A stretch of DNA of 35,632 bases, taken from positions 1-35,632 of IMG/VR virus record IMGVR_UViG_3300017613_000573. The stretch is one strand, 5' to 3'. The notes below the pieces were generated by a model. That model was given only the letters and a program-made list of their open reading frames with translations. It made no database searches and was not told where the DNA came from. The position numbers were made by a program, and so were the translations under genes. Below are positions 3,624-35,632 of this stretch, piece after piece; position 1 is the first letter of the stretch; the number at the start of each line of letters is the position of its first letter. The stretch is from a virus.

Positions 3624-3683
3624 ATGTCGGCTAGACCTAAACCACCTAAACCCACGCACCCGCCACAGCGGCCAGGAAAATGA
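3624..3683 (+). CDS. Candidate 19-aa proline-rich cationic micro-ORF (MSARPKPPKPTHPPQRPGK)
   Basis: GAGGG lies 6 nt upstream of the ATG. The TGA stop is 1 nt before the next ATG (3685). It is shorter than the cutoff used for the ORF track. Confidence 0.25.
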   Translation: MSARPKPPKPTHPPQRPGK

Positions 3684-6152: not shown

Positions 6153-6327
6153 AATTTTCCCCAAAACTGAAAAGCGTATAAGGGACTAAGCCGGGCTTAT
6201 CCCATCTCTTTGAAATAGGAAACCATAATAAAACTGAGTTGCCTACCTTGTAATACAGTATTGTTTTATCGGGTAGTAAAGCCCAGTGCGTTGCCCCATC
6301 AGGCATATAGATATGTTTATTAGCCAT
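6145..6327 (-). CDS. Hypothetical protein (60 aa)
   Basis: ATG at 6327 lies in an 8-nt ATGGCTAA overlap with the upstream stop. There is no recognisable motif. Confidence 0.5.
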   Translation of the reverse strand: MANKHIYMPDGATHWALLPDKTILYYKVGNSVLLWFPISKRWDKPGLVPYTLFSFGENYD

Positions 6328-6736
6328 AATCAATAACCCTCATAAGTTCGCTTTCTGTGATACCATTACCTAGCTCTTTTAAAAACACATTGATGGCGGT
6401 ATCAAATAATGCTTTAAATTCATCCTCATCCATGCTCTCGAATGATATCGACTTGGCCGCGAATATTGTGGATCCGCTGGGTGTAACAATCGTGTCGAAA
6501 TATCCGGCCTTCATGGTTATCCACTTCCGATATATCTCCATGATCTCAAAATGCTCCTGCATATCGAAGGTGGTTTTAATAAAGCTAAAGAATCGTTTAT
6601 GGTTTTCGTAGTTCCTGGCGATCTTAATCTCAGCTGAGATAATGGTCCCAGGCTTACGACGCTGGACATAGAGCCTTGTCTCCTCGTTATTAGGATAAAA
6701 AGCTCCGTTTCTGGATTTGATAAAAAAAGCTTTCAC
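6320..6736 (-). CDS. DUF1367-like phage protein
   Basis: GTG start directly after the upstream TAA. The pattern (NYENHKRFFSFIKTTFDMQ...KSISFESMDEDEFKALF) recalls the lambdoid DUF1367 family. Confidence 0.55.
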   Translation of the reverse strand: MKAFFIKSRNGAFYPNNEETRLYVQRRKPGTIISAEIKIARNYENHKRFFSFIKTTFDMQEHFEIMEIYRKWITMKAGYFDTIVTPSGSTIFAAKSISFESMDEDEFKALFDTAINVFLKELGNGITESELMRVIDYG

Positions 6737-7357
6737 TTATAGCTCCTTGTTTATCCGAGCATCGATCTGGATTTTAAGCAGACGCTTATATTCGATAAGA
6801 TCATTAATATTATGAACCTGACCAGGTTGTTTATAATCATATTCAATAGCGAAGGACCGGAGTGCAGCGATATCAATGGATCCAGGCATTTGAGCCCATG
6901 GCTCGGCCTTTAACTCCTGGAGTCTTTTCTCACGATCCTCCTTGTTGAGTTTCTTTTTAGGCGGTAAGTAATCCTTTAAAAAATAATGCTCACGGCCATA
7001 AAATGTTCTGGCCTGTAATACATGTTTTGTTCCCTCAACTTCATCAGCGATACAATATTTTTTATATCTAATAGCGCCCTCTGTTAATTGATCAACGGTG
7101 AAACCTTCTAATAACCTTGTTTTCCATTGGCCAAAAGCCTCAATTTTTGGATTATTGGCTGATCCTCTAGACGGCATAAGCTTCCAGGCATTTTCAAATT
7201 CAGGCGAGTATTTAATCTCCTTGGCGGTGCGTTTTTTCTTCTGGCGCCTGGTTACGCTCCATTTTTCATCATTCCAGTCAACATCAAAGCCACACTCATC
7301 CATAAAAGTAAGCTGTAAATCCATTAACTGCCTGAGTAATTTCATTTCCGGGCTCAT
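6737..7357 (-). CDS. Hypothetical protein, possibly replication-associated (206 aa)
   Basis: ATG at 7357 has GGAGG 5 nt upstream and an ATGA overlap with the upstream stop. The motif YSPEFENAWKLMPSRGSANNPKIEAFGQW resembles motifs in phage replication-organiser-type proteins. This is a weak call. Confidence 0.5.
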   Translation of the reverse strand: MSPEMKLLRQLMDLQLTFMDECGFDVDWNDEKWSVTRRQKKKRTAKEIKYSPEFENAWKLMPSRGSANNPKIEAFGQWKTRLLEGFTVDQLTEGAIRYKKYCIADEVEGTKHVLQARTFYGREHYFLKDYLPPKKKLNKEDREKRLQELKAEPWAQMPGSIDIAALRSFAIEYDYKQPGQVHNINDLIEYKRLLKIQIDARINKEL

Positions 7358-7638
7358 GCTAACCTCCAAGCATAACAAAGGTTTCCAAAATCACCACGAC
7401 GCTGGATATCAGTTTTAATCAGCTTGTTATCATGGGTCAGGTTCGTCATGGCTCGGCGGATAGAGGTGATAGGCGTTTTATTAGTAAAGATAAGTTTATG
7501 CACCTCAAACGGTGTAAAATCATCTTTAGTTTTTTGGAATAACTCCAGGATTTTTTCTTCCTGGGTTAATGCTAAACAATCCCTCTTAGCAAGTTCCTCA
7601 AATTCCAGGCTATTCGTGTTGTAATAATGTTTTGTCAT
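7354..7638 (-). CDS. Winged-helix DNA-binding protein (94 aa)
   Basis: The leader is TTGCGAGGTtactATG. The segment FTPFEVHKL...TPITSIRRAMTNLTHDNKLIKT...GDFGNLCYAW looks like a wHTH recognition helix plus wing. Confidence 0.6.
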   Translation of the reverse strand: MTKHYYNTNSLEFEELAKRDCLALTQEEKILELFQKTKDDFTPFEVHKLIFTNKTPITSIRRAMTNLTHDNKLIKTDIQRRGDFGNLCYAWRLA

Positions 7639-7659
7639 AGTAACCTCGCAAGTTAATAG

Positions 7660-7691
7660 TTTATAGCATATAGCTATACTGCTCGATAATC
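7660..7691 (-). promoter_or_regulatory. Extended -10 promoter with the conserved early box (GTATAGCTATATGCTATAAA on the minus strand)
   Basis: TGcTATAAA (-10 at 7660-7665, TG at 7667-7668) lies 22 nt upstream of the ATG at 7638. The TATAGCTA palindrome is 3 nt upstream of TGC. The -35 is weak. Confidence 0.5.
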
Positions 7692-8033
7692 AATATATTA
7701 TTTATTCTCTTAATTTTATCCACAGTACGACTAATGACCTTAGGGACACCTATTTAAAATACAGGGATTCCTACGATATTCTTTTATTCTATTTGTTAAT
7801 CATCCATAACCAATATTGTATATATTATTGTCCACAACCCGATATCATCTATGAAAGGAGGTCAATCTGCCTACAGTGTCCACTAAAATGGTTTTACCGC
7901 CGGTCAATCCAGGCCTAAACATGGCTCTAGGAAAGCGGGAATATACAATTTCATCCAATTTTTTTAAAACTTCTCGCAGTTATACAGTGCCGTTGGCATA
8001 CCCGTGCTGTATTTGCGGTTGGTGTAGGACTAT

Positions 8034-8062
8034 TTGACAAAAATAGAAAGAGCAACGATAAT
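8034..8062 (+). promoter_or_regulatory. Near-consensus sigma70-type promoter: TTGACA-17 nt-GATAAT, pointing rightward
   Basis: TTGACA at 8034-8039, an exact 17-nt spacer, and GATAAT at 8057-8062. It lies in an otherwise non-coding 555-bp gap. Confidence 0.5.
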
Positions 8063-8087
8063 TGCGCTTAGCAGCAACGATAATTGC
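8051..8087. repeat. Two identical 15-bp direct repeats AGCAACGATAATTGC (8051-8065 and 8073-8087), 22-bp period; operator- or iteron-like
   Basis: Exact duplication read directly from the sequence. Each unit has GCAA-N6-TTGC dyad ends. Copy 1 covers the -10 of the 8034 promoter and copy 2 covers about +3 to +17. Confidence 0.7.
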
Positions 8088-8195
8088 TTCTACTTCTGTC
8101 AAACAGTCCCACACCTCGCAAGTGAAAGACTACAGGAATTTTCCCCACAGTCAATTCCAAAACTTGAAGGCCCCTATCTGGGGCCTTCTTCTATT
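8070..8195 (+). ncRNA. Candidate antisense small RNA of about 120 nt (promoter at 8034 to hairpin at 8167-8187)
   Basis: The predicted start is about 7 nt after GATAAT. The interval has no ATG and no RBS-linked start codon. It ends at an 8-bp GC-rich hairpin followed by CUUCUAUU. Confidence 0.3.
8167..8187 (-). terminator. Hairpin terminator (AAGGCCCC-5 nt-GGGGCCTT) 7 nt downstream of the stop of 8194-9162; possibly bidirectional
   Basis: Perfect 8-bp stem. The minus-strand downstream sequence is CAAGTTTTGG. Confidence 0.6.
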
Positions 8196-9162
8196 ACGCT
8201 ACTTTTTCCTCCTCAGGTTTATAAGTTTTAATCAGCTTTAATACGTCCAGGCTAAAGCAAGCCATATCCGAATTAAGGCCTTTATCTTTTAATTTGGGCT
8301 GGTTATCAACTACCTGGCGCACATCATTGAGATAGGCGTCGAGCTTCTCATAATCAGGGGCTAGGGCTTTGCGCTTAGCCTCAGCTTCTTTGTCAGCTTT
8401 CTCCTTGGCCTCAGCTTCATCCTTAAGGCGTTGCTCCTCCTCAGCGGCCTTACGTTCATTTTCAGCCTTTTCGTCGGCTTCGCGTTGTTGTTTATCGAGA
8501 GCGGCCTGTTTATCGTCTAGCTCTTTTTGCTGAGCGGCCATTTTTTCCTCACGCTCCTTATTTTCAGCTTCACGACGATCCAGGTCAATGCGGGCGTCCA
8601 GCGCCTTTTCAAGATCTGATTTAACTTGGTTAAAAGTTACCTGAGCCGGCTCGAGAAATTCCTGATATTTTTCCTCAGTAATCTCCAGAGCGTTAACCAT
8701 ATCCAGGCGGGCTTTGATAACATCAGTTGAGGCATTAAGCAGACCGTTAACCTGGTTTCTCATAGTGGCGATCATATCCTCAATGATCTGGATCCGGCTT
8801 TCCTCGGCTTCACGTTCCAGGCGCTCCTCCTCAGCTTTGGCTTGGTCCACTTTTTCGCGGGCCTCGACCATTGGCTGAGCGATATCCTTAAGGATTTCAG
8901 TAACGCGCTTTGCTTCTGCGTTAACTCCGCGCTGGTGCTCTAGGGCCTCAGCTGTTTGGACTTTTCGCTCCTTATCGACCGCGGCCCATAAGGTCCGGAG
9001 CTCTTGAACATTAGAAACAATTAACTGATAACCGTCGGCCGTATTGGCGTCCGGAACTACCTTAAATTTTTTCTTGAGCTCATTTAGCTTTTTATCGGTC
9101 ACACCTAGATTAACCAGGGCTTTTTTAGTTTGGGTTTTTACAGGGTCTTTAGTTGATGCCAT
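8194..9162 (-). CDS. Highly charged coiled-coil protein (322 aa) linked to the recombination genes
   Basis: GGAGG RBS. It has long E/K/A/R-rich heptad regions (EEERLEREAEE..., EKAENERKAAEEEQRLKDEAEAKEKADKEAEAKRK). It lies downstream of exo and erf, like the DUF1351-type partners seen in other phages. Confidence 0.6.
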   Translation of the reverse strand: MASTKDPVKTQTKKALVNLGVTDKKLNELKKKFKVVPDANTADGYQLIVSNVQELRTLWAAVDKERKVQTAEALEHQRGVNAEAKRVTEILKDIAQPMVEAREKVDQAKAEEERLEREAEESRIQIIEDMIATMRNQVNGLLNASTDVIKARLDMVNALEITEEKYQEFLEPAQVTFNQVKSDLEKALDARIDLDRREAENKEREEKMAAQQKELDDKQAALDKQQREADEKAENERKAAEEEQRLKDEAEAKEKADKEAEAKRKALAPDYEKLDAYLNDVRQVVDNQPKLKDKGLNSDMACFSLDVLKLIKTYKPEEEKVA

Positions 9163-9171
9163 TATGGCCTC

Positions 9172-9783
9172 CTATTTATTTAATACTTTTAAACAAAGAT
9201 TTCTCTCGGCCTCCACGGCCTTGAGTTGTTTTTTTAACGTATCAATCACCAATTGATCCGGGGTTATCCTAATCTGTAACATAGGGAGATCAGGATGATA
9301 AAAAACTAAATCGCACCAGGGGCGGCCAGTTACAAACATTTGGCCCTGTACCTGGGCGATATAAGTGGTCGGGGCGCGGCCGTGTTTATCGAAATACATC
9401 AGAGTTTTAACGTGCTCTTTAGGGATCTGGCATTTAAACTCGACCAGGCCAGGACCAGCTAATCCGTCTGGGCTGCAGCCGTACTGCATTAAGTCATTCG
9501 TGATAAAACCGACTTGCTCCACGTCGATATCATTATCCATTGAATAGGCCATGCGGGCAGACTCCTCGAGATCCTTGCCTCGATCCGTGTATTTATTACC
9601 CATAAAGCCATCCAGGACCTTACCGGCGTATTTTTCAGCGGCCAGAGCCATGGCATACTCAGGCATGGATTTGCTCACGGCGCCTGTACTTGTAACTAGT
9701 TTTGAAAATTCGCTGGCTGTAGGTATCCCGGCGCGTAGTGTGTGCCATTCTTCTGAGCCTTGTTCAACGTCGTGTATAATCAT
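9172..9783 (-). CDS. YqaJ-like (lambda Exo-type) recombination exonuclease
   Basis: The N-terminus QGSEEWHTLRAGIPTASEFSKLV is typical of the YqaJ family, and PDG...VEFKC matches the PD-(D/E)xK core. ATGA overlap with erf. Confidence 0.8.
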   Translation of the reverse strand: MIIHDVEQGSEEWHTLRAGIPTASEFSKLVTSTGAVSKSMPEYAMALAAEKYAGKVLDGFMGNKYTDRGKDLEESARMAYSMDNDIDVEQVGFITNDLMQYGCSPDGLAGPGLVEFKCQIPKEHVKTLMYFDKHGRAPTTYIAQVQGQMFVTGRPWCDLVFYHPDLPMLQIRITPDQLVIDTLKKQLKAVEAERNLCLKVLNK

Positions 9784-10553
9784 TCGCTTTTAGCCTTAAT
9801 TGCCATATTTAAACGGGTGATAACTGCCTCATAATTGCACTCATAGAGATCGTCGAAGCGATCCACTTTAAACGCCTCCTTTAACCAGCTCATAACCCTG
9901 GCCTCAGGGAGCTCGTTTTCTTTGATCATGGAGTCAATTTTTAATAACTGCTCCTCGCTCAACGTTTCAGGCAGTGGTCCGCCAGCCGCGTTCCCGTCGT
10001 CGTCGTTGCCTGTATTAAGATTAAATATTAAACAGGTTAGATATCTACGGCCGTAAGAATTAGCTGAACCGGTCCCGTGGGTTTTAGTTTTGTTAACCGC
10101 GCCCTTAATACCTGTAAGATCCAGAGGCGTATCAGTAAAATAATGCTTTGAAAAGCCTGAGGAGTGCATCACGTCGCATGTAACGCGAACATGATCAGCC
10201 AATGGGCTCTCAGCATTGCCGAAAGATAAAGCGAATCCCTCAGCCGTATAAACCGGCGTTATGGTTTTAATGATTACTTTCAAGTCTGAATAGCTAGAAT
10301 TTGTTTGATCATTCTCTCTATTTTTCACAATGGCCGGCATTTTTTTCTGAACCTCGACCATTGATATCGAGTAAGCTTGTTCAGCCTGGCGATCTAATAC
10401 GCGCTCCTGCATGTTTAAAAGTTTTTCCAGGCTATCTGCATCTACGCCATTTTCTAGGGCGGTCTGCAGCATACCCATAACCTGAGCCTCAGGAGAGAGC
10501 TGTTTTCTGCGAGCTCTCTTTTTTGGTACTACTGATAAATTATTTTCTGTCAT
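9780..10553 (-). CDS. erf: ERF-family single-strand annealing protein
   Basis: Motifs SYSDLKVIIKTITPVYTAEGFAL, VTCDVMHSSGF and THGTGSANSYGRRYLTCLIFNL, followed by a DDDG tail, match the ERF pattern. Confidence 0.8.
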   Translation of the reverse strand: MTENNLSVVPKKRARRKQLSPEAQVMGMLQTALENGVDADSLEKLLNMQERVLDRQAEQAYSISMVEVQKKMPAIVKNRENDQTNSSYSDLKVIIKTITPVYTAEGFALSFGNAESPLADHVRVTCDVMHSSGFSKHYFTDTPLDLTGIKGAVNKTKTHGTGSANSYGRRYLTCLIFNLNTGNDDDGNAAGGPLPETLSEEQLLKIDSMIKENELPEARVMSWLKEAFKVDRFDDLYECNYEAVITRLNMAIKAKSE

Positions 10554-10810: not shown

Positions 10811-10829
10811 CTCTACCTCGCCCGGTTAT

Positions 10830-10858
10830 TATATAGCAGATTGCTAGAAAGAGCCATA
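10830..10858 (-). promoter_or_regulatory. Extended -10 promoter of the early-box type (TGCTATATAA on the minus strand)
   Basis: The motif CTAGCAATCTGCTATATA lies about 20 nt upstream of the RBS of 10556-10810. The -35 is weak. Confidence 0.4.
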
Positions 10859-11457: not shown

Positions 11458-11489
11458 TCACACCTCGCAATTAATTAACCCACGCCTCT

Positions 11490-11518
11490 AATATAGCAAA
11501 TAGCTATACAGATTGCAA
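11490..11518 (-). promoter_or_regulatory. Strong sigma70-type early promoter: TTGCAA-17 nt-TATATT with extended TG and a TATAGCTA spacer palindrome
   Basis: The minus strand reads TTGCAATCTGTATAGCTATTTGCTATATT. It overlaps the 3' end of 11504-11719. Confidence 0.6.
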
Positions 11519-12326: not shown

Positions 12327-12355
12327 AATATAGCAATTAGCTATACAGATAGCAA
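12327..12355 (-). promoter_or_regulatory. Leftward early promoter: TTGCTA-17 nt-TATATT with extended TG and a TATAGCTA palindrome
   Basis: The minus strand reads TTGCTATCTGTATAGCTAATTGCTATATT. It is 23 nt upstream of the GGAGG of 12148-12297. Confidence 0.65.
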
Positions 12356-12374: not shown

Positions 12375-12412
12375 TAGCCTATTGCTATATTTCATAGCTT
12401 AATGCTATATTT
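12375..12412 (+). promoter_or_regulatory. Rightward early promoter region: two tandem 18-nt boxes TAGCyTAwTGCTATATT (12375-12392 and 12395-12412)
   Basis: TTGCTA (12382-12387), an 18-nt spacer, then TGcTATATT (-10 at 12406-12411). The first box is itself an extended -10. The ATG at 12420 is only about 1-2 nt beyond the predicted start site. Confidence 0.55.
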
Positions 12413-13990: not shown

Positions 13991-14202
13991 ACGATAATAC
14001 TCTCAACTGGGTTATACCCGCTATCACTCTAGGCTATGCAGTAGTCCAGGACCGTGACGGGCGCCTGAGGTTTTTCTCCGAGGATGTTGAGATCGTACAC
14101 AGGAAAGGGGGCTGGATCGGGCGGGATAACGTGGATCCAGATCGAGAATATTTAGACTTGCCTCATGCCCTGCAGGGTGAGGCCTGGAGGTTGCCGGAAT
14201 GA
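13987..14202 (+). CDS. Hypothetical protein (71 aa)
   Basis: Coupled start (ATGA). No motif recognised. Confidence 0.5.
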   Translation: MNDNTLNWVIPAITLGYAVVQDRDGRLRFFSEDVEIVHRKGGWIGRDNVDPDREYLDLPHALQGEAWRLPE

Positions 14203-14519
14203 CAGATAAAATGCCAGATTTACTTCCTTGTCCGTTTTGTGGTGATCAGCCTCGTTCTTTCCATGATAAAAGTTCGGATTATGAGGCGCATTGGAGCTGG
14301 TCAGTAGTGTGTGAATGTGGTGGCGAAGTAAATCATGAATTTGATACAGAAAAAGAAGCCATAGAATGCTGGAACACCCGAACCCCCGCTGACCTTCAAG
14401 CGCTTAAGGAGAGGGTTATGAAAGAGGTTGAGAATGAATTAAGCAAGTACGATATACCTTTATTGGCGACAATAAAAGCTCAACAGGCAATCAACAAAGC
14501 ATGGGAGGGGATGGAGTGA
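14199..14519 (+). CDS. Lar-like restriction-alleviation family protein, paralog 1
   Basis: LLPCPFCG...VVCECGG...EKEAIECWNTR matches the Lar (Rac prophage) zinc-ribbon pattern. Confidence 0.7.
   Translation: MTDKMPDLLPCPFCGDQPRSFHDKSSDYEAHWSWSVVCECGGEVNHEFDTEKEAIECWNTRTPADLQALKERVMKEVENELSKYDIPLLATIKAQQAINKAWEGME
14370..14418 (+). repeat. 49-nt near-identical repeat, copy 1 (tggaacacc...gaccttcaagcgcttaaggagagggtta)
   Basis: Compared by eye with 14690-14738. The last 28 nt are identical and there are a few mismatches before that. The copies are 320 bp apart. Confidence 0.8.
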
Positions 14520-14851
14520 GTGAATTAAAACCGTGTCCGTTTTGTGGCTATGAGTTACCGGATTATGAGGGGCTTATAAAAGCTGTAAATGATGAAGATG
14601 GGATATTACAACATCCTACAGGTGTTTGTTGTTCAAATTGTGGATGCTATCAAGTTGGGGGCGAAACAATAGAAGATGCAATCAAAACATGGAACACCAG
14701 AAACCCCGCCGACCTTCAAGCGCTTAAGGAGAGGGTTAAGGGGATGAAGAAGCCTGAAACCTGTGGAGCAGGGGATATTGATTGTGGAGGCAAATACAAT
14801 CAAGCCATTAACGATGTACTTGAAGCAATCAAAGCATGGGAGGAGAAATGA
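14501..14851 (+). CDS. Lar-like restriction-alleviation family protein, paralog 2 (start may be the GTG at 14516)
   Basis: LKPCPFCG...CCSNCGC...IEDAIKTWNTR. It shares the ADLQALKERV segment with paralog 1. Confidence 0.7.
   Translation: MGGDGVSELKPCPFCGYELPDYEGLIKAVNDEDGILQHPTGVCCSNCGCYQVGGETIEDAIKTWNTRNPADLQALKERVKGMKKPETCGAGDIDCGGKYNQAINDVLEAIKAWEEK
14690..14738 (+). repeat. 49-nt near-identical repeat, copy 2
   Basis: See copy 1. It lies at the equivalent position in the second Lar-like gene. Confidence 0.8.
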
Positions 14852-22193: not shown

Positions 22194-22222
22194 TTGACGT
22201 ATTGATCAGTAAGTATTATATT
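22194..22222 (+). promoter_or_regulatory. Sigma70-type promoter TTGACG-17 nt-TATATT upstream of the major capsid gene
   Basis: TTGACG at 22194-22199 and TATATT at 22217-22222, with an exact 17-nt spacer. It starts immediately after the scaffold stop codon. Confidence 0.5.
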
Positions 22223-22241
22223 GAAATTCAGAAACGTATTA

Positions 22242-22270
22242 CCGGCCCTGTTTGGAGGGCCGGGATTTTA
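22242..22270 (+). promoter_or_regulatory. GC-rich hairpin (CCGGCCCT-6 nt-AGGGCCGG) plus GATTTTA; either an attenuator/terminator or a 5' stabilising stem of the capsid mRNA
   Basis: Perfect 8-bp stem located 12-34 nt after the predicted start site, followed by a 135-nt untranslated leader before the ATG at 22406. Confidence 0.5.
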
Positions 22271-22405
22271 CTACCACAACGGACACCCTCAATGAGGCCC
22301 GCTTAAAGTAGTCGGATAGGCGCAACGAATAGCGCAAGATCGGCCCACTTAGTTGGATACCCGGATCGCTTAATTTTCTATTAACGATTTGATGAGGGAC
22401 ATACA

Positions 22406-34030: not shown

Positions 34031-35632
34031 CTTAAAAGATTGTATCGAGGCGGCGGTCGCTACCGGAAAGATATCCGATGAGGAGGCTCAGGACCTTGCG
34101 CGTAGAATTGATCAATATCAAGACCAGATTGTATTACGTGGTGAAGTTTCACCAGAGGCGGCGCTGTCAGAGGCGGAGCAAGCGGTATTAAAAGCTAAAG
34201 GCGCTGAGCTCGCACTCAAAAAACGCCAGGCGCGGCTCCAGGCCGTGGCCCTTCACAAGATAACTAACCAGGTGCAAGATCATCCGGCCGGTGTAAAGGT
34301 CGGCGTTATGTCTCTCCTGGTTAAGGATGTGGGCTCGAGAGCGGCTTATTCTAATATTGACGCCCGTGGTAACGCCATCCTGGCCACATATCATGCCAAG
34401 TTTGCCGAGGCCATGGATAAATTCAGGACTAAAAATCTAGGTTTCTCCCAGGATGTAGATGGCCTCAGGAATATGGTGCGTGAATTATTTAACTCTCCGA
34501 CGGGTGATAGTACGGCTGCCTCAATGGCTAAGATCTGGAGTGATACGGCTGAGATGGCTCGAGTTCGTTTTAATCGTGCCGGTGGTGCTATCCCTAAGCG
34601 TGAGGATTGGGGGATGCCTCAGTGGCATGATCCTGTAAGAGTTTCCAGGGTATCAAAAGAAAACTGGATCGATGGGATTAAGGATAAACTCGATCGTAAT
34701 AAAATGCTCGACGACGCTGGGCTCCCTATCAATGATATGCAGCTTGAGCAGATGCTCGCTCGATCTTATGATGAAATAGCAACCGATGGCCTGGCCTCTA
34801 TGACGCCTGGCAGAATGGGCGGATCTAAACTGGCTAACCGCCATAGGGACCATAGAACACTCCCCTTTAAAACAGCGGACGACTGGCTGGAATACCACGA
34901 TAATTTCGGCCATGCGGACCTGTATGCGACGTTAACAGATCATTTAAGCAGTATGGCCAATGATACAGCCAAGCTCGAAATACTAGGCCCTAACCCTCAG
35001 GCTTCCTGGAGATACATGAGGGATATGGCTTTGAAAGACGCAGAGGGCGAGGGCCTGGATATGGCGCTCCTGGATTCTGTCTGGAGGGTGGTGTCTGGTG
35101 AGGCTAATCAAACTAAATCTGTAAAGCTTGCCGACTTTATGCAGTCGGTTCGCTCGCTCCTGGTGGCCAGCAAGTTGGGCGGCGCCATGTTATCAGCTGT
35201 ATCAGACACGGCTTTCCTGAAAAAAACCTCAAGCTTTAACGGCATACCCGCGACCAAAGTATTTCAACGTATGAGCTCGCTATTAAATCCAGCTAATGAG
35301 GCGGATCGATTAACTGCAGTTAAGATGCAATTAACGGCGGACGCCTGGGCGAATCATGCCCTGGCTGCAAATCGTTTCACTGAGGTTACGGGTGCGGGCT
35401 TCTCGGCTAAGATTGCCGACTTTACCATGCGGGCCTCAATGTTATCAGCCTGGACGGATGCCGGGCGTAAGGCCTTTGGCATGGAGTTCCAGAGCTTATT
35501 AGGTGATATGCAAGGCAAGGCCCTGGCAGAATTGCCTCAAGAGCTCCAGGGCGCGTTTAAACGCTATGGCATAACGGGCGACGACTGGGAGATTATGCGG
35601 GCGACGGATCCATTAACCCATAAAGGAGTTAA
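34023..35632 (+). CDS. 5' part of the wrap-around internal virion protein gene (800 aa in total, continues at 122-914)
   Basis: TTG at 34023 is the first codon after an in-frame TAG. GGAGGG lies 8 nt upstream, in a TTGGCTAA overlap with the upstream stop. The frame stays open to the window end and is in phase with 1-914. (35511-34023+1)+914 = 2403 nt = 801 codons. Confidence 0.75.
   Translation, partial: MANLKDCIEAAVATGKISDEEAQDLARRIDQYQDQIVLRGEVSPEAALSEAEQAVLKAKGAELALKKRQARLQAVALHKITNQVQDHPAGVKVGVMSLLVKDVGSRAAYSNIDARGNAILATYHAKFAEAMDKFRTKNLGFSQDVDGLRNMVRELFNSPTGDSTAASMAKIWSDTAEMARVRFNRAGGAIPKREDWGMPQWHDPVRVSRVSKENWIDGIKDKLDRNKMLDDAGLPINDMQLEQMLARSYDEIATDGLASMTPGRMGGSKLANRHRDHRTLPFKTADDWLEYHDNFGHADLYATLTDHLSSMANDTAKLEILGPNPQASWRYMRDMALKDAEGEGLDMALLDSVWRVVSGEANQTKSVKLADFMQSVRSLLVASKLGGAMLSAVSDTAFLKKTSSFNGIPATKVFQRMSSLLNPANEADRLTAVKMQLTADAWANHALAANRFTEVTGAGFSAKIADFTMRASMLSAWTDAGRKAFGMEFQSLLGDMQGKALAELPQELQGAFKRYGITGDDWEIMRATDPLTHKGV
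35512..35632. repeat. Terminal overlap copy 2 (identical to 1-121)
   Basis: Same 121-nt string as the window start. Confidence 0.9.

Follow-up and report, generated by a model that had tools for sequence, protein, structure and literature searches.

What does the largest internal non-coding stretch of a phage genome do when it lies in the middle of an operon? The question is raised by IMG/VR virus record IMGVR_UViG_3300017613_000573, a stretch of 35,632 nt that was analysed at its full length and is called the window here, in which positions 7639-8193 (555 bp) carry no JGI gene call and lie within the minus-strand early-left operon. A first-pass annotation, made from the letters alone, had rightly singled out this gap as unusual. 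The gap is a control region between recombination genes and replication genes, and we predict from conserved sequence that a promoter-to-terminator unit within it encodes a non-coding plus-strand RNA of ∼100-126 nt. By analogy with known systems, this unit may serve as a countertranscript and convergent-promoter brake on transcription entering the origin and the replication module, a reading to which we give a probability of about 0.5. Throughout, "sense" denotes the minus strand of the window, which is the direction of the flanking genes.

A conserved promoter and terminator

The plus-strand antisense promoter (P_as, 8034-8062) consists of a -35 box TTGACA (8034-8039), a 17-nt spacer and a -10 box GATAAT (8057-8062), just as first described, with a predicted transcription start at ∼8069-8070. 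Matching the sigma-70 consensus at 11/12 positions, it is the top match genome-wide, though chance alone would supply about one of equal quality per genome. It is therefore conservation in relatives, and not the match score alone, that places it beyond chance. The same module is present in three further phages, namely L001 (an IMG/VR contig of 35.8 kb), L003 (an ENA contig of 35.6 kb) and L004 (a Logan contig of 2.9 kb), whose versions of the 94-aa protein encoded beside the gap are 79%, 60% and 52% identical to that of the window, respectively. Statements on conservation and covariation made below rest on these four sequences. In all three relatives the promoter is kept in the same place as TTGAC[AG]-17-GATAAT, a pattern that occurs nowhere else in 98 fetched loci. 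The 17-nt spacing is identical in the four phages while the sequence between and around the hexamers differs, and AATTATC is one of just two meaningful motifs common to their four gaps. Since GTCAA is retained even in L001, L003 and L004, where it is unpaired in the long hairpin described below, a promoter constraint is favoured over a structural one.

A bidirectional intrinsic terminator lies ∼100 nt downstream of P_as in all four phages. In the window it occupies 8166-8188 and has a perfect 9-bp stem (GAAGGCCCC/GGGGCCTTC) with seven GC pairs and a 5-nt loop, and is thus slightly longer than the perfect 8-bp GC hairpin first reported at 8167-8187; a 9-bp GC hairpin of this kind is beyond chance. 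Across the four phages the stem reads GAAGGCCCC, GAAGCCCTC, GGGCTCC and GGCTCC, with four of its nine pairs changed on both sides (RNAalifold). The plus-strand tail (8189-8196 in the window) places a U-tract directly after the stem in every case (TTCTATTA, TTCTATTA, TTTTCTTTTA and TTTTTCTATTA), whereas in the window (AAG) and L001 (AA) the minus-direction U-run is shifted by 2-3 nt from the stem. Because the U-tract consistently adjoins the stem only in the plus direction, the hairpin appears to be conserved foremost as a plus-strand RNA terminator. To judge by its sequence, the same hairpin would also terminate, less strongly, transcripts of the minus-strand gene upstream, which has its stop codon at 8194-8196.

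Given the conserved promoter and a terminator at this distance from it, we predict an antisense RNA spanning 8070-8196 on the plus strand, with a length of ∼126 nt in the window and ∼100-109 nt in the relatives. The first-pass annotation had proposed such an RNA from the window, and the proposal is strengthened by the retention of both elements in L001, L003 and L004. The RNAs are predicted to fold with z-scores (here and below, those of the fold tool) of -3.3 to -6.2 in the window and its relatives, and their RNAalifold consensus structure has 17 pairs, five of them with compensatory change. Two stem-loops, SL1 (8105-8131) and SL2 (8135-8158, stem GGAAUU/AAUUCC), are preceded in the window only by a 5′ stem-loop (8070-8091) formed by the second copy of a repeat discussed below. 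The loop of SL1 carries CCUCGCAAG (CUUCGCA in L004) in all four predicted RNAs, and SL2 has one compensatory pair, GGAATT/AATTCC becoming GGATTT/AAATCC with a change from A-U to U-A in L004.

Translation of the gap had been named at the outset as evidence that would speak against a non-coding RNA, and no open reading frame (ORF) within it is conserved on either strand in the four phages. The plus-strand ORFs across the RNA (59 and 65 aa) are not conserved in the relatives, and neither is the reading frame of a 44/40-aa ORF at 7980-8114, so the 40-aa TTG-initiated gene that had been considered here was rejected. An ORF beginning MELT[VL]GKIP (8068-8160 on the minus strand; 3283-3354 in L001; 3964-4026 in L003) was also rejected as a gene, as it has no ribosome-binding site. 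In L003 it is frame-shifted after codon 9 by a 1-nt insertion that keeps the promoter spacing, and the shared peptide is best read as nucleotide conservation of the SL2 and -35 region, not as coding sequence.

Outside the four phages, a scan of 535 kb of related loci with an RNA covariance model gave no match. Homologues of the 94-aa protein at greater distance were checked at 80 viral loci, 6 genome loci and several short metagenome contigs; both the pattern TTGAC[AG]-17-GATAAT and a match to the RNA model were absent from all of these, and none of those inspected had a comparable upstream gap. Rfam returned nothing meaningful for the whole window at gathering thresholds or for the gap at E-values up to 10, and the region had no match in GenBank phage DNA. 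In exact scans, a conserved 22-mer matched only L001's own contig among viral contigs, while the SL2 motif gave chance matches within coding regions of metagenome and viral contigs (L011 and L012) and no match in genome contigs. As far as these sequences indicate, the antisense RNA is restricted to a small clade, with no homologue known elsewhere. The label "oop-like", under which it was first proposed, is apt for its position and direction but not for its relation to neighbouring genes or its sequence, as there is no overlap with upstream coding sequence and no Rfam match.

Twin repeats at the apex of a long hairpin

The two exact 15-bp repeats (AGCAACGATAATTGC) reported at first pass were found at 8051-8065 and 8073-8087, 22 bp apart from start to start. 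Copy 1 contains the -10 box of P_as and copy 2 covers about +4 to +18 of the RNA; the chance expectation of an exact 15-bp repeat in 555 bp is estimated at ∼1e-4. They had been interpreted as tandem operators, through which a repressor such as the 94-aa winged-helix protein or the Cro-like protein would control the promoter of an oop-like RNA. The promoter and terminator in that proposal are supported, and the repeats do have the dyad ends and the 22-bp spacing over the -10 box and early transcribed region on which it was built. Moreover, one palindrome over the -10 box is kept in every relative (AACAAAGATAATTGTT in L001, ACAATGATAATTGT in L003 and AAATAGATAATTT in L004). Nevertheless, the relatives have one copy and not two. 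The stem bases of the palindrome vary in compensatory fashion (GCAA/TTGC, ACAA/TTGT, AAAT/ATTT) whereas the proteins that might bind it remain similar, with a nearly invariant recognition helix in the 94-aa protein. The palindrome also extends into covarying arms of at least 20-30 bp, which fits a hairpin better than a protein site.

The distribution of operator-like motifs in the genome points the same way. GCAA-N6-TTGC has no genome occurrence beyond the two repeat copies, whereas TAGC-N5-GCTA recurs at six sites against 0.76 expected (7664-7676, 10834-10846, 11494-11506, 12331-12343, 12375-12387 and 12395-12407). All six lie within early intergenic regions and overlap -10 boxes, three of them in the region from which the 62-aa gene and the Cro-like gene diverge, and TAGC-N5-GCTA looks like the main operator network of this phage. 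Repressor control of P_as through the twin repeats is in our view unlikely. As the relatives have a single palindrome, we interpret the window's two copies as a recent, window-specific 22-bp duplication of the apex of a hairpin.

This hairpin, which the first-pass annotation had overlooked, is long and imperfect and occupies 8013-8121 on the minus strand. A 28-nt inverted repeat (8021-8048 and 8088-8115) encloses the twin repeats, giving arms at 8115-8088 and 8048-8021 with the twin repeats as the apex, and at the foot a leader-like UUGCG(AGG) at 8121-8114 pairs with CGCAA at 8017-8013. P_as is embedded in the 3′ arm and apex of a hairpin on the sense strand. Equivalent hairpins of 77-118 nt were found in all four phages, with z-scores of -11.6 in the window (minus strand) and between -4.6 and -8.2 in L001, L003 and L004; the sequence of the arms differs between phages and their complementarity is kept. 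Predicted folding energies for the sense and plus strands were -60.9 and -43.1 kcal/mol in the window, -38.2 and -40.8 kcal/mol in L001, -41.4 and -30.7 kcal/mol in L003, and -29.2 and -25.6 kcal/mol in L004. Because the sense strand folds more stably in three of the four phages, and because each of the four mismatches between the window's arms is G-T when read on the minus strand, the hairpin is read as an RNA (or single-strand) structure of the sense strand. Both the 5′ arm of the hairpin and the leader-like GCGAGG of the foot have their exact complement in the predicted antisense RNA.

A leader without a gene

The sequence at the hairpin foot, TTGCGAGG (8114-8121, minus strand), contains a Shine-Dalgarno-like GCGAGG with no usable start codon behind it. 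Its presence without an ATG had been noted before, as a copy of a leader conserved in this phage. The copy is there, although as a recurrent element it is less compelling, since the window holds no more than three copies of TTGCGAGG (7644, 8114 and 11463, against 1.04 expected), a count that 9 of 100 shuffles reach. The suggestion that it is a decayed gene start was not supported by comparison with the relatives. The leader copy is conserved in L001 and L003 (TGCGAAG in L004), it follows a promoter-like -10 box after 6 nt, in the same geometry by which (T)GCGAGG follows the -10 box of real early promoters, and its GCGAGG is paired with a downstream CGC at the hairpin foot in all four phages. 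No conserved start codon or ORF follows it in any of the four. On this evidence, the leader copy is probably a conserved promoter-leader cassette, base-paired at the base of the hairpin.

The promoter-like sequence in question is a candidate weak sense promoter (P_sense, 8127-8154, minus strand) with a -35 box TTGACT (8154-8149), a 16-nt spacer and a -10 box TAGTCT (8132-8127). Its predicted start at ∼8120 would make it convergent with P_as. It scores below the threshold of the promoter scan and is kept in L001 (TTGACC-16-TAGTCT) and L003 (TTGACC-17-TAGTTT), while L004 lacks the -10 box.

(T)GCGAGG was also seen after early promoters at 7644-7651, 10812-10820 and 11463-11470 in the window, at 613 and 3988 in L001, and at 1234, 2263 and 4988 in L003. 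Several early mRNAs would thus begin nearly at the Shine-Dalgarno sequence, with (T)GCGAGG starting 6 nt past the -10 box. The conserved TGC before GAGG is not accounted for by complementarity to 16S rRNA.

These leaders invite the alternative that the antisense RNA acts in trans as an anti-Shine-Dalgarno RNA, the SL1 loop CCUCGCAAG pairing with GCGAGG leaders and stopping translation of early mRNAs. Its targets would be the leader of the operon of the 94-aa protein and replication genes (7644-7651) and that of the 191-aa gene (11463-11470), with the gap's own copy acting as a decoy or being simply the template of the loop. The complementary motif is present in the predicted loop of all four RNAs, and GCGAGG stands behind each early promoter in the window, L001 and L003. 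Complementarity to ribosome-binding sites extends over 8-12 nt, reaching 12 nt in the case of the 191-aa gene and 11 nt in that of the 94-aa gene, whose genuine leader and Shine-Dalgarno sequence is also TTGCGAGG (7644-7651, minus strand). These two give the best predicted duplexes among the real genes of the window, and such leaders rank high in L003. Yet the match would arise automatically if the gap merely holds a copy of the usual promoter-leader cassette, and the leader of the L004 replication gene matches over only ∼6 nt. The duplex ranking is also noisy, with spurious ORFs scoring equally well, and we consider regulation in trans improbable.

The RNA and the hairpin could also form a single device, in which SL1 would act in trans on Shine-Dalgarno sequences while the leader copy at the foot served as a decoy or sponge that sets the level of free RNA. 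We hold this combination to be quite improbable. Its targets would be the operator-controlled early mRNAs with this leader at their 5′ end, namely those of the replication operon and of the 191-aa gene and, with a less complete match, that of the 84-aa gene (leader GGCGAGG). If true, it would be an RNA counterpart of a global translational repressor of early genes such as T4 RegA.

Origin-like DNA and the replication promoter

Between the hairpin and the replication genes lies an origin-like region (7677-7974), directly upstream of the latter, with AT-rich DNA, DnaA boxes and repeats of the form GGWRTCCCT. The GC content falls to 28-30% over ∼7600-7850, compared with 46% for the genome. The only perfect DnaA box in the 35.6-kb genome, TTATCCACA, lies at 7716-7724 (plus strand) and is joined by a one-mismatch box at 7828-7836 (plus strand). 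The sole 9-mer common to all four gaps is itself a perfect DnaA box (TGTGGATAA), which occurs once in the gap of each relative. The first-pass suggestion of an origin is thus strengthened by a DnaA box in every relative's gap, with the AT-rich stretch adjoining, and a DnaA-assisted replication origin in the gap is likely on sequence grounds.

Which repeats might bind an initiator is less clear. Two GGWRTCCCT repeats (GGAATCCCT and GGTGTCCCT, 7742-7771, minus strand) are 21 bp apart and the pair is kept in L001 with a spacing of ∼22 bp; with two copies only there is no clear iteron set, and they are candidate iterons. The GGTCAATC repeats that had been put forward before are both present, at 7860 and 7902 and not at 7859 and 7901, and were rejected as iterons, since chance alone should give about two 8-mer pairs of this kind in 555 bp (an estimate) and L001 does not keep them. 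A further block of ∼38 nt at 7975-8012, reading ATACAGCACGGGTATGCCAACGGCACTGTATAACTGCG on the minus strand, is conserved in L001 only (3641-3678), where it is near-identical between diverging flanks. Neither a promoter nor a convincing covarying structure was seen in the block, which may be an initiator-binding site.

The replication genes have a promoter of their own on the far side of the origin-like DNA. This promoter (P_rep, 7664-7693, minus strand) has a -35 box TTGATT (7693-7688), a 17-nt spacer and a -10 box TATGCT (7670-7665), the latter overlapped by the TAGC-N5-GCTA operator TAGCATATAGCTA (7664-7676). The same place in L001 and L003 holds TTGAT[TA]-17-TATATT with TAGCAACTTGCTA.

The position of the promoter-leader cassette upstream of the origin-like region leads to another possibility, namely that a sense RNA from 8120 primes or activates the origin 150-450 nt downstream and that the antisense RNA refolds or removes this transcript, in the manner of ColE1 RNA I acting on RNA II. 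An antisense RNA of ∼100 nt with three stem-loops, complementary to the first 30-50 nt of the sense transcript, would be suited to this. However, P_sense is weak and absent in L004, no G-rich segment that would favour an R-loop was seen, and in L001 and L003 other genes intervene between hairpin and origin-like DNA. Priming by RNA polymerase is also not required, as the phage encodes initiator-like proteins. We regard origin priming as very unlikely.

It is also conceivable that the hairpin itself is the functional element, either as a site at which the early-left polycistronic RNA is processed by RNase III or insulated, or as a DNA palindrome at the origin, the antisense RNA being secondary. 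The hairpin is the most strongly structured feature, with z-scores down to -11.6, and its arms covary in all four phages; stems of 30-45 bp are typical RNase III substrates, as is established from the processing sites of lambda and T7. This account leaves unexplained, however, the conserved GTCAA that is unpaired in L001, L003 and L004, the exact 17-nt spacing to ATTATC in all four phages, and the plus-oriented terminator at a constant distance, and it too appears very improbable to us. A mobile inverted-repeat element (a miniature inverted-repeat transposable element, MITE, or a Correia-like one) was rejected because the hairpin occupies the same locus in all four phages, with arms that diverged in place and no other copies. 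A type I toxin-antitoxin system was dismissed for want of a conserved small hydrophobic ORF within or beside the module, and a tRNA, attP or integration site because no tRNAs and no integrase were found.

A proposed brake on origin-directed transcription

The reading that we favour, a countertranscript and convergent-promoter brake, takes lambda pO/oop and IS10 RNA-OUT as its analogues. In this model P_as, a strong promoter free of operators, would fire head-on against sense transcripts bound for the origin and the replication genes. Such transcripts would be supplied by read-through of the terminator, which is weak in the sense direction, by the weak P_sense (8127-8154), or by both. Interference between the polymerases would throttle this unregulated sense transcription, and the small RNA could add a second throttling effect by pairing with the sense RNA over its 5′ arm and leader. 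Expression of the replication genes and activation of the origin would then depend on the operator-controlled P_rep.

Several observations weigh against this model. All of its transcripts are predictions, and as the antisense RNA overlaps no coding sequence, a target for it can only be inferred. Placed downstream of the entire module, P_rep could express the replication genes whatever happens at 8013-8196, and L003 has a methylase gene between the module and these genes. The -10 box of P_sense is weak (3/6) and the promoter is absent in L004; its bases also form SL2 and half of SL1, so that its conservation has two possible causes. The L001 hairpin is slightly more stable on the plus strand (-40.8 vs -38.2 kcal/mol). 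Finally, the module is carried by four sequences only, which keeps the covariation counts small.

Genome and gene context

The window is an entire JGI metagenome contig (3300017598). Its first 121 bases (1-121) are identical to the last 121 (35512-35632) in a self-comparison. These identical ends indicate that the window is a complete genome of ∼35.5 kb, either a circular assembly or terminally redundant. Its portal protein is ∼30-35% identical to portals of Pelagibacter, Methylophilales and Vibrio podophages, and no integrase, tRNA or phage RNA polymerase was found in the window. The phage appears to be podovirus-like and dependent on the host RNA polymerase.

On the recombination side of the gap, the minus-strand operon encodes Erf (9780-10553), a YqaJ exonuclease (9172-9783) and, immediately upstream of the gap, a 322-aa protein (8194-9162, minus strand). 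On the replication side follow the 94-aa winged-helix protein (7354-7638, with its ATG at 7638), a 213-aa protein related to DnaD-like and lambdoid O-like initiators (6737-7378) and NinB (6320-6736), all on the minus strand. The gene of the 94-aa protein, whose nearly invariant recognition helix reads TPITSIRRAMTNLT, overlaps the start of that of the 213-aa protein (6737-7638, minus strand), and the latter matches just the C-terminal or central part of O-like and DnaD-like replication proteins. The replication initiator thus seems, from these matches, to be split over the two proteins.

In two relatives the hairpin module and the promoter of the replication genes are separated by additional genes. 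The insert in L001 (3437-3631) is a 64-aa ORF that has a good ribosome-binding site and matches no family. That in L003 (4317-4958) is a DNA cytosine methylase, with a putative promoter CTGATA-17-TATAAT that has the DnaA box in its spacer.

Elsewhere in the window, a 212-bp gap (22194-22405) precedes a 276-aa gene (22406) and has at its start a 10/12 promoter match on the plus strand, TTGACG-17-TATATT, which may be a late or middle promoter. Two neighbouring paralogous genes (14199-14851) match a Lar-like restriction-alleviation family (phrog_599).

Comparison with known systems

To our knowledge, a handful of model phages account for the phage-encoded regulatory RNAs described so far. With its promoter, terminator and stems conserved or covarying in four genomes, the module described here is a comparatively well-supported candidate for a regulatory RNA in an uncultured aquatic podovirus-like lineage, and it sits where transcription, recombination genes and a probable DnaA-assisted origin meet. 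Coordinates for the TAGC-N5-GCTA operator and the candidate origin should also aid the annotation of related metagenomic phages.

The closest parallel to the proposed brake is lambda, in which pO is convergent with pR and lies between cII and the replication gene O. As in lambda, a short antisense RNA would start from a promoter just upstream of the replication genes and run away from them, against the early operon, and the 213-aa protein is related to lambdoid O-like replication proteins. Convergent transcription from lambda pO lowers pR transcription through the origin and modulates the initiation of replication (PMC3985674). The RNA predicted here has no sequence or Rfam similarity to oop and overlaps the upstream gene at most at the stop codon, where oop covers ∼50 nt of coding sequence. 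In addition, P_as is buried at the apex of a long conserved hairpin, unlike pO, and the origin-like DNA lies in the gap, whereas the lambda origin lies inside the initiator gene. If the brake model is true, a lambda-like dual convergent-promoter brake on origin-directed transcription arose independently with unrelated sequence.

The RNA-OUT/RNA-IN pair of IS10 offers a second likeness, as there a strong antisense promoter (pOUT) opposes a weak sense promoter (pIN) with a 5′ overlap, much as P_as would oppose the candidate P_sense with an overlap of ∼30-50 nt. In both systems a Shine-Dalgarno sequence stands at the 5′ end of the sense RNA, and the antisense RNA presents its complement in a stem-loop, although in the present case this is predicted. 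In contrast to IS10, the sense leader is followed by no start codon, so that the overlap holds no obvious translated target. The sense RNA would also form its own long hairpin, and P_sense, itself a prediction, is missing from L004.

Plasmid countertranscripts such as R1 CopA/CopT, ColE1 RNA I/RNA II and pT181 RNA I/II are likewise antisense RNAs of ∼100 nt with several stem-loops, encoded beside an origin (here, origin-like DNA) and upstream of initiator genes, and complementary to a structured sense leader. They differ in that the replication genes of this phage have their own operator-controlled promoter downstream of the module, from which they may be separated by other genes (L001, L003), and that neither an attenuator terminator nor a leader peptide was found. 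The sar RNA of P22, which is antisense to the arc-ant junction, is similarly a small phage RNA with an early-region promoter and an intrinsic terminator. It covers the ribosome-binding site of ant, whereas the only such sequence covered here has no gene behind it.

Judged against these systems, the type of control, a convergent-promoter antisense RNA at a replication control region, is already known, while the RNA itself is previously undescribed. What is unusual is the promoter at the apex of a long hairpin, which, if the brake model holds, would be a compact design.

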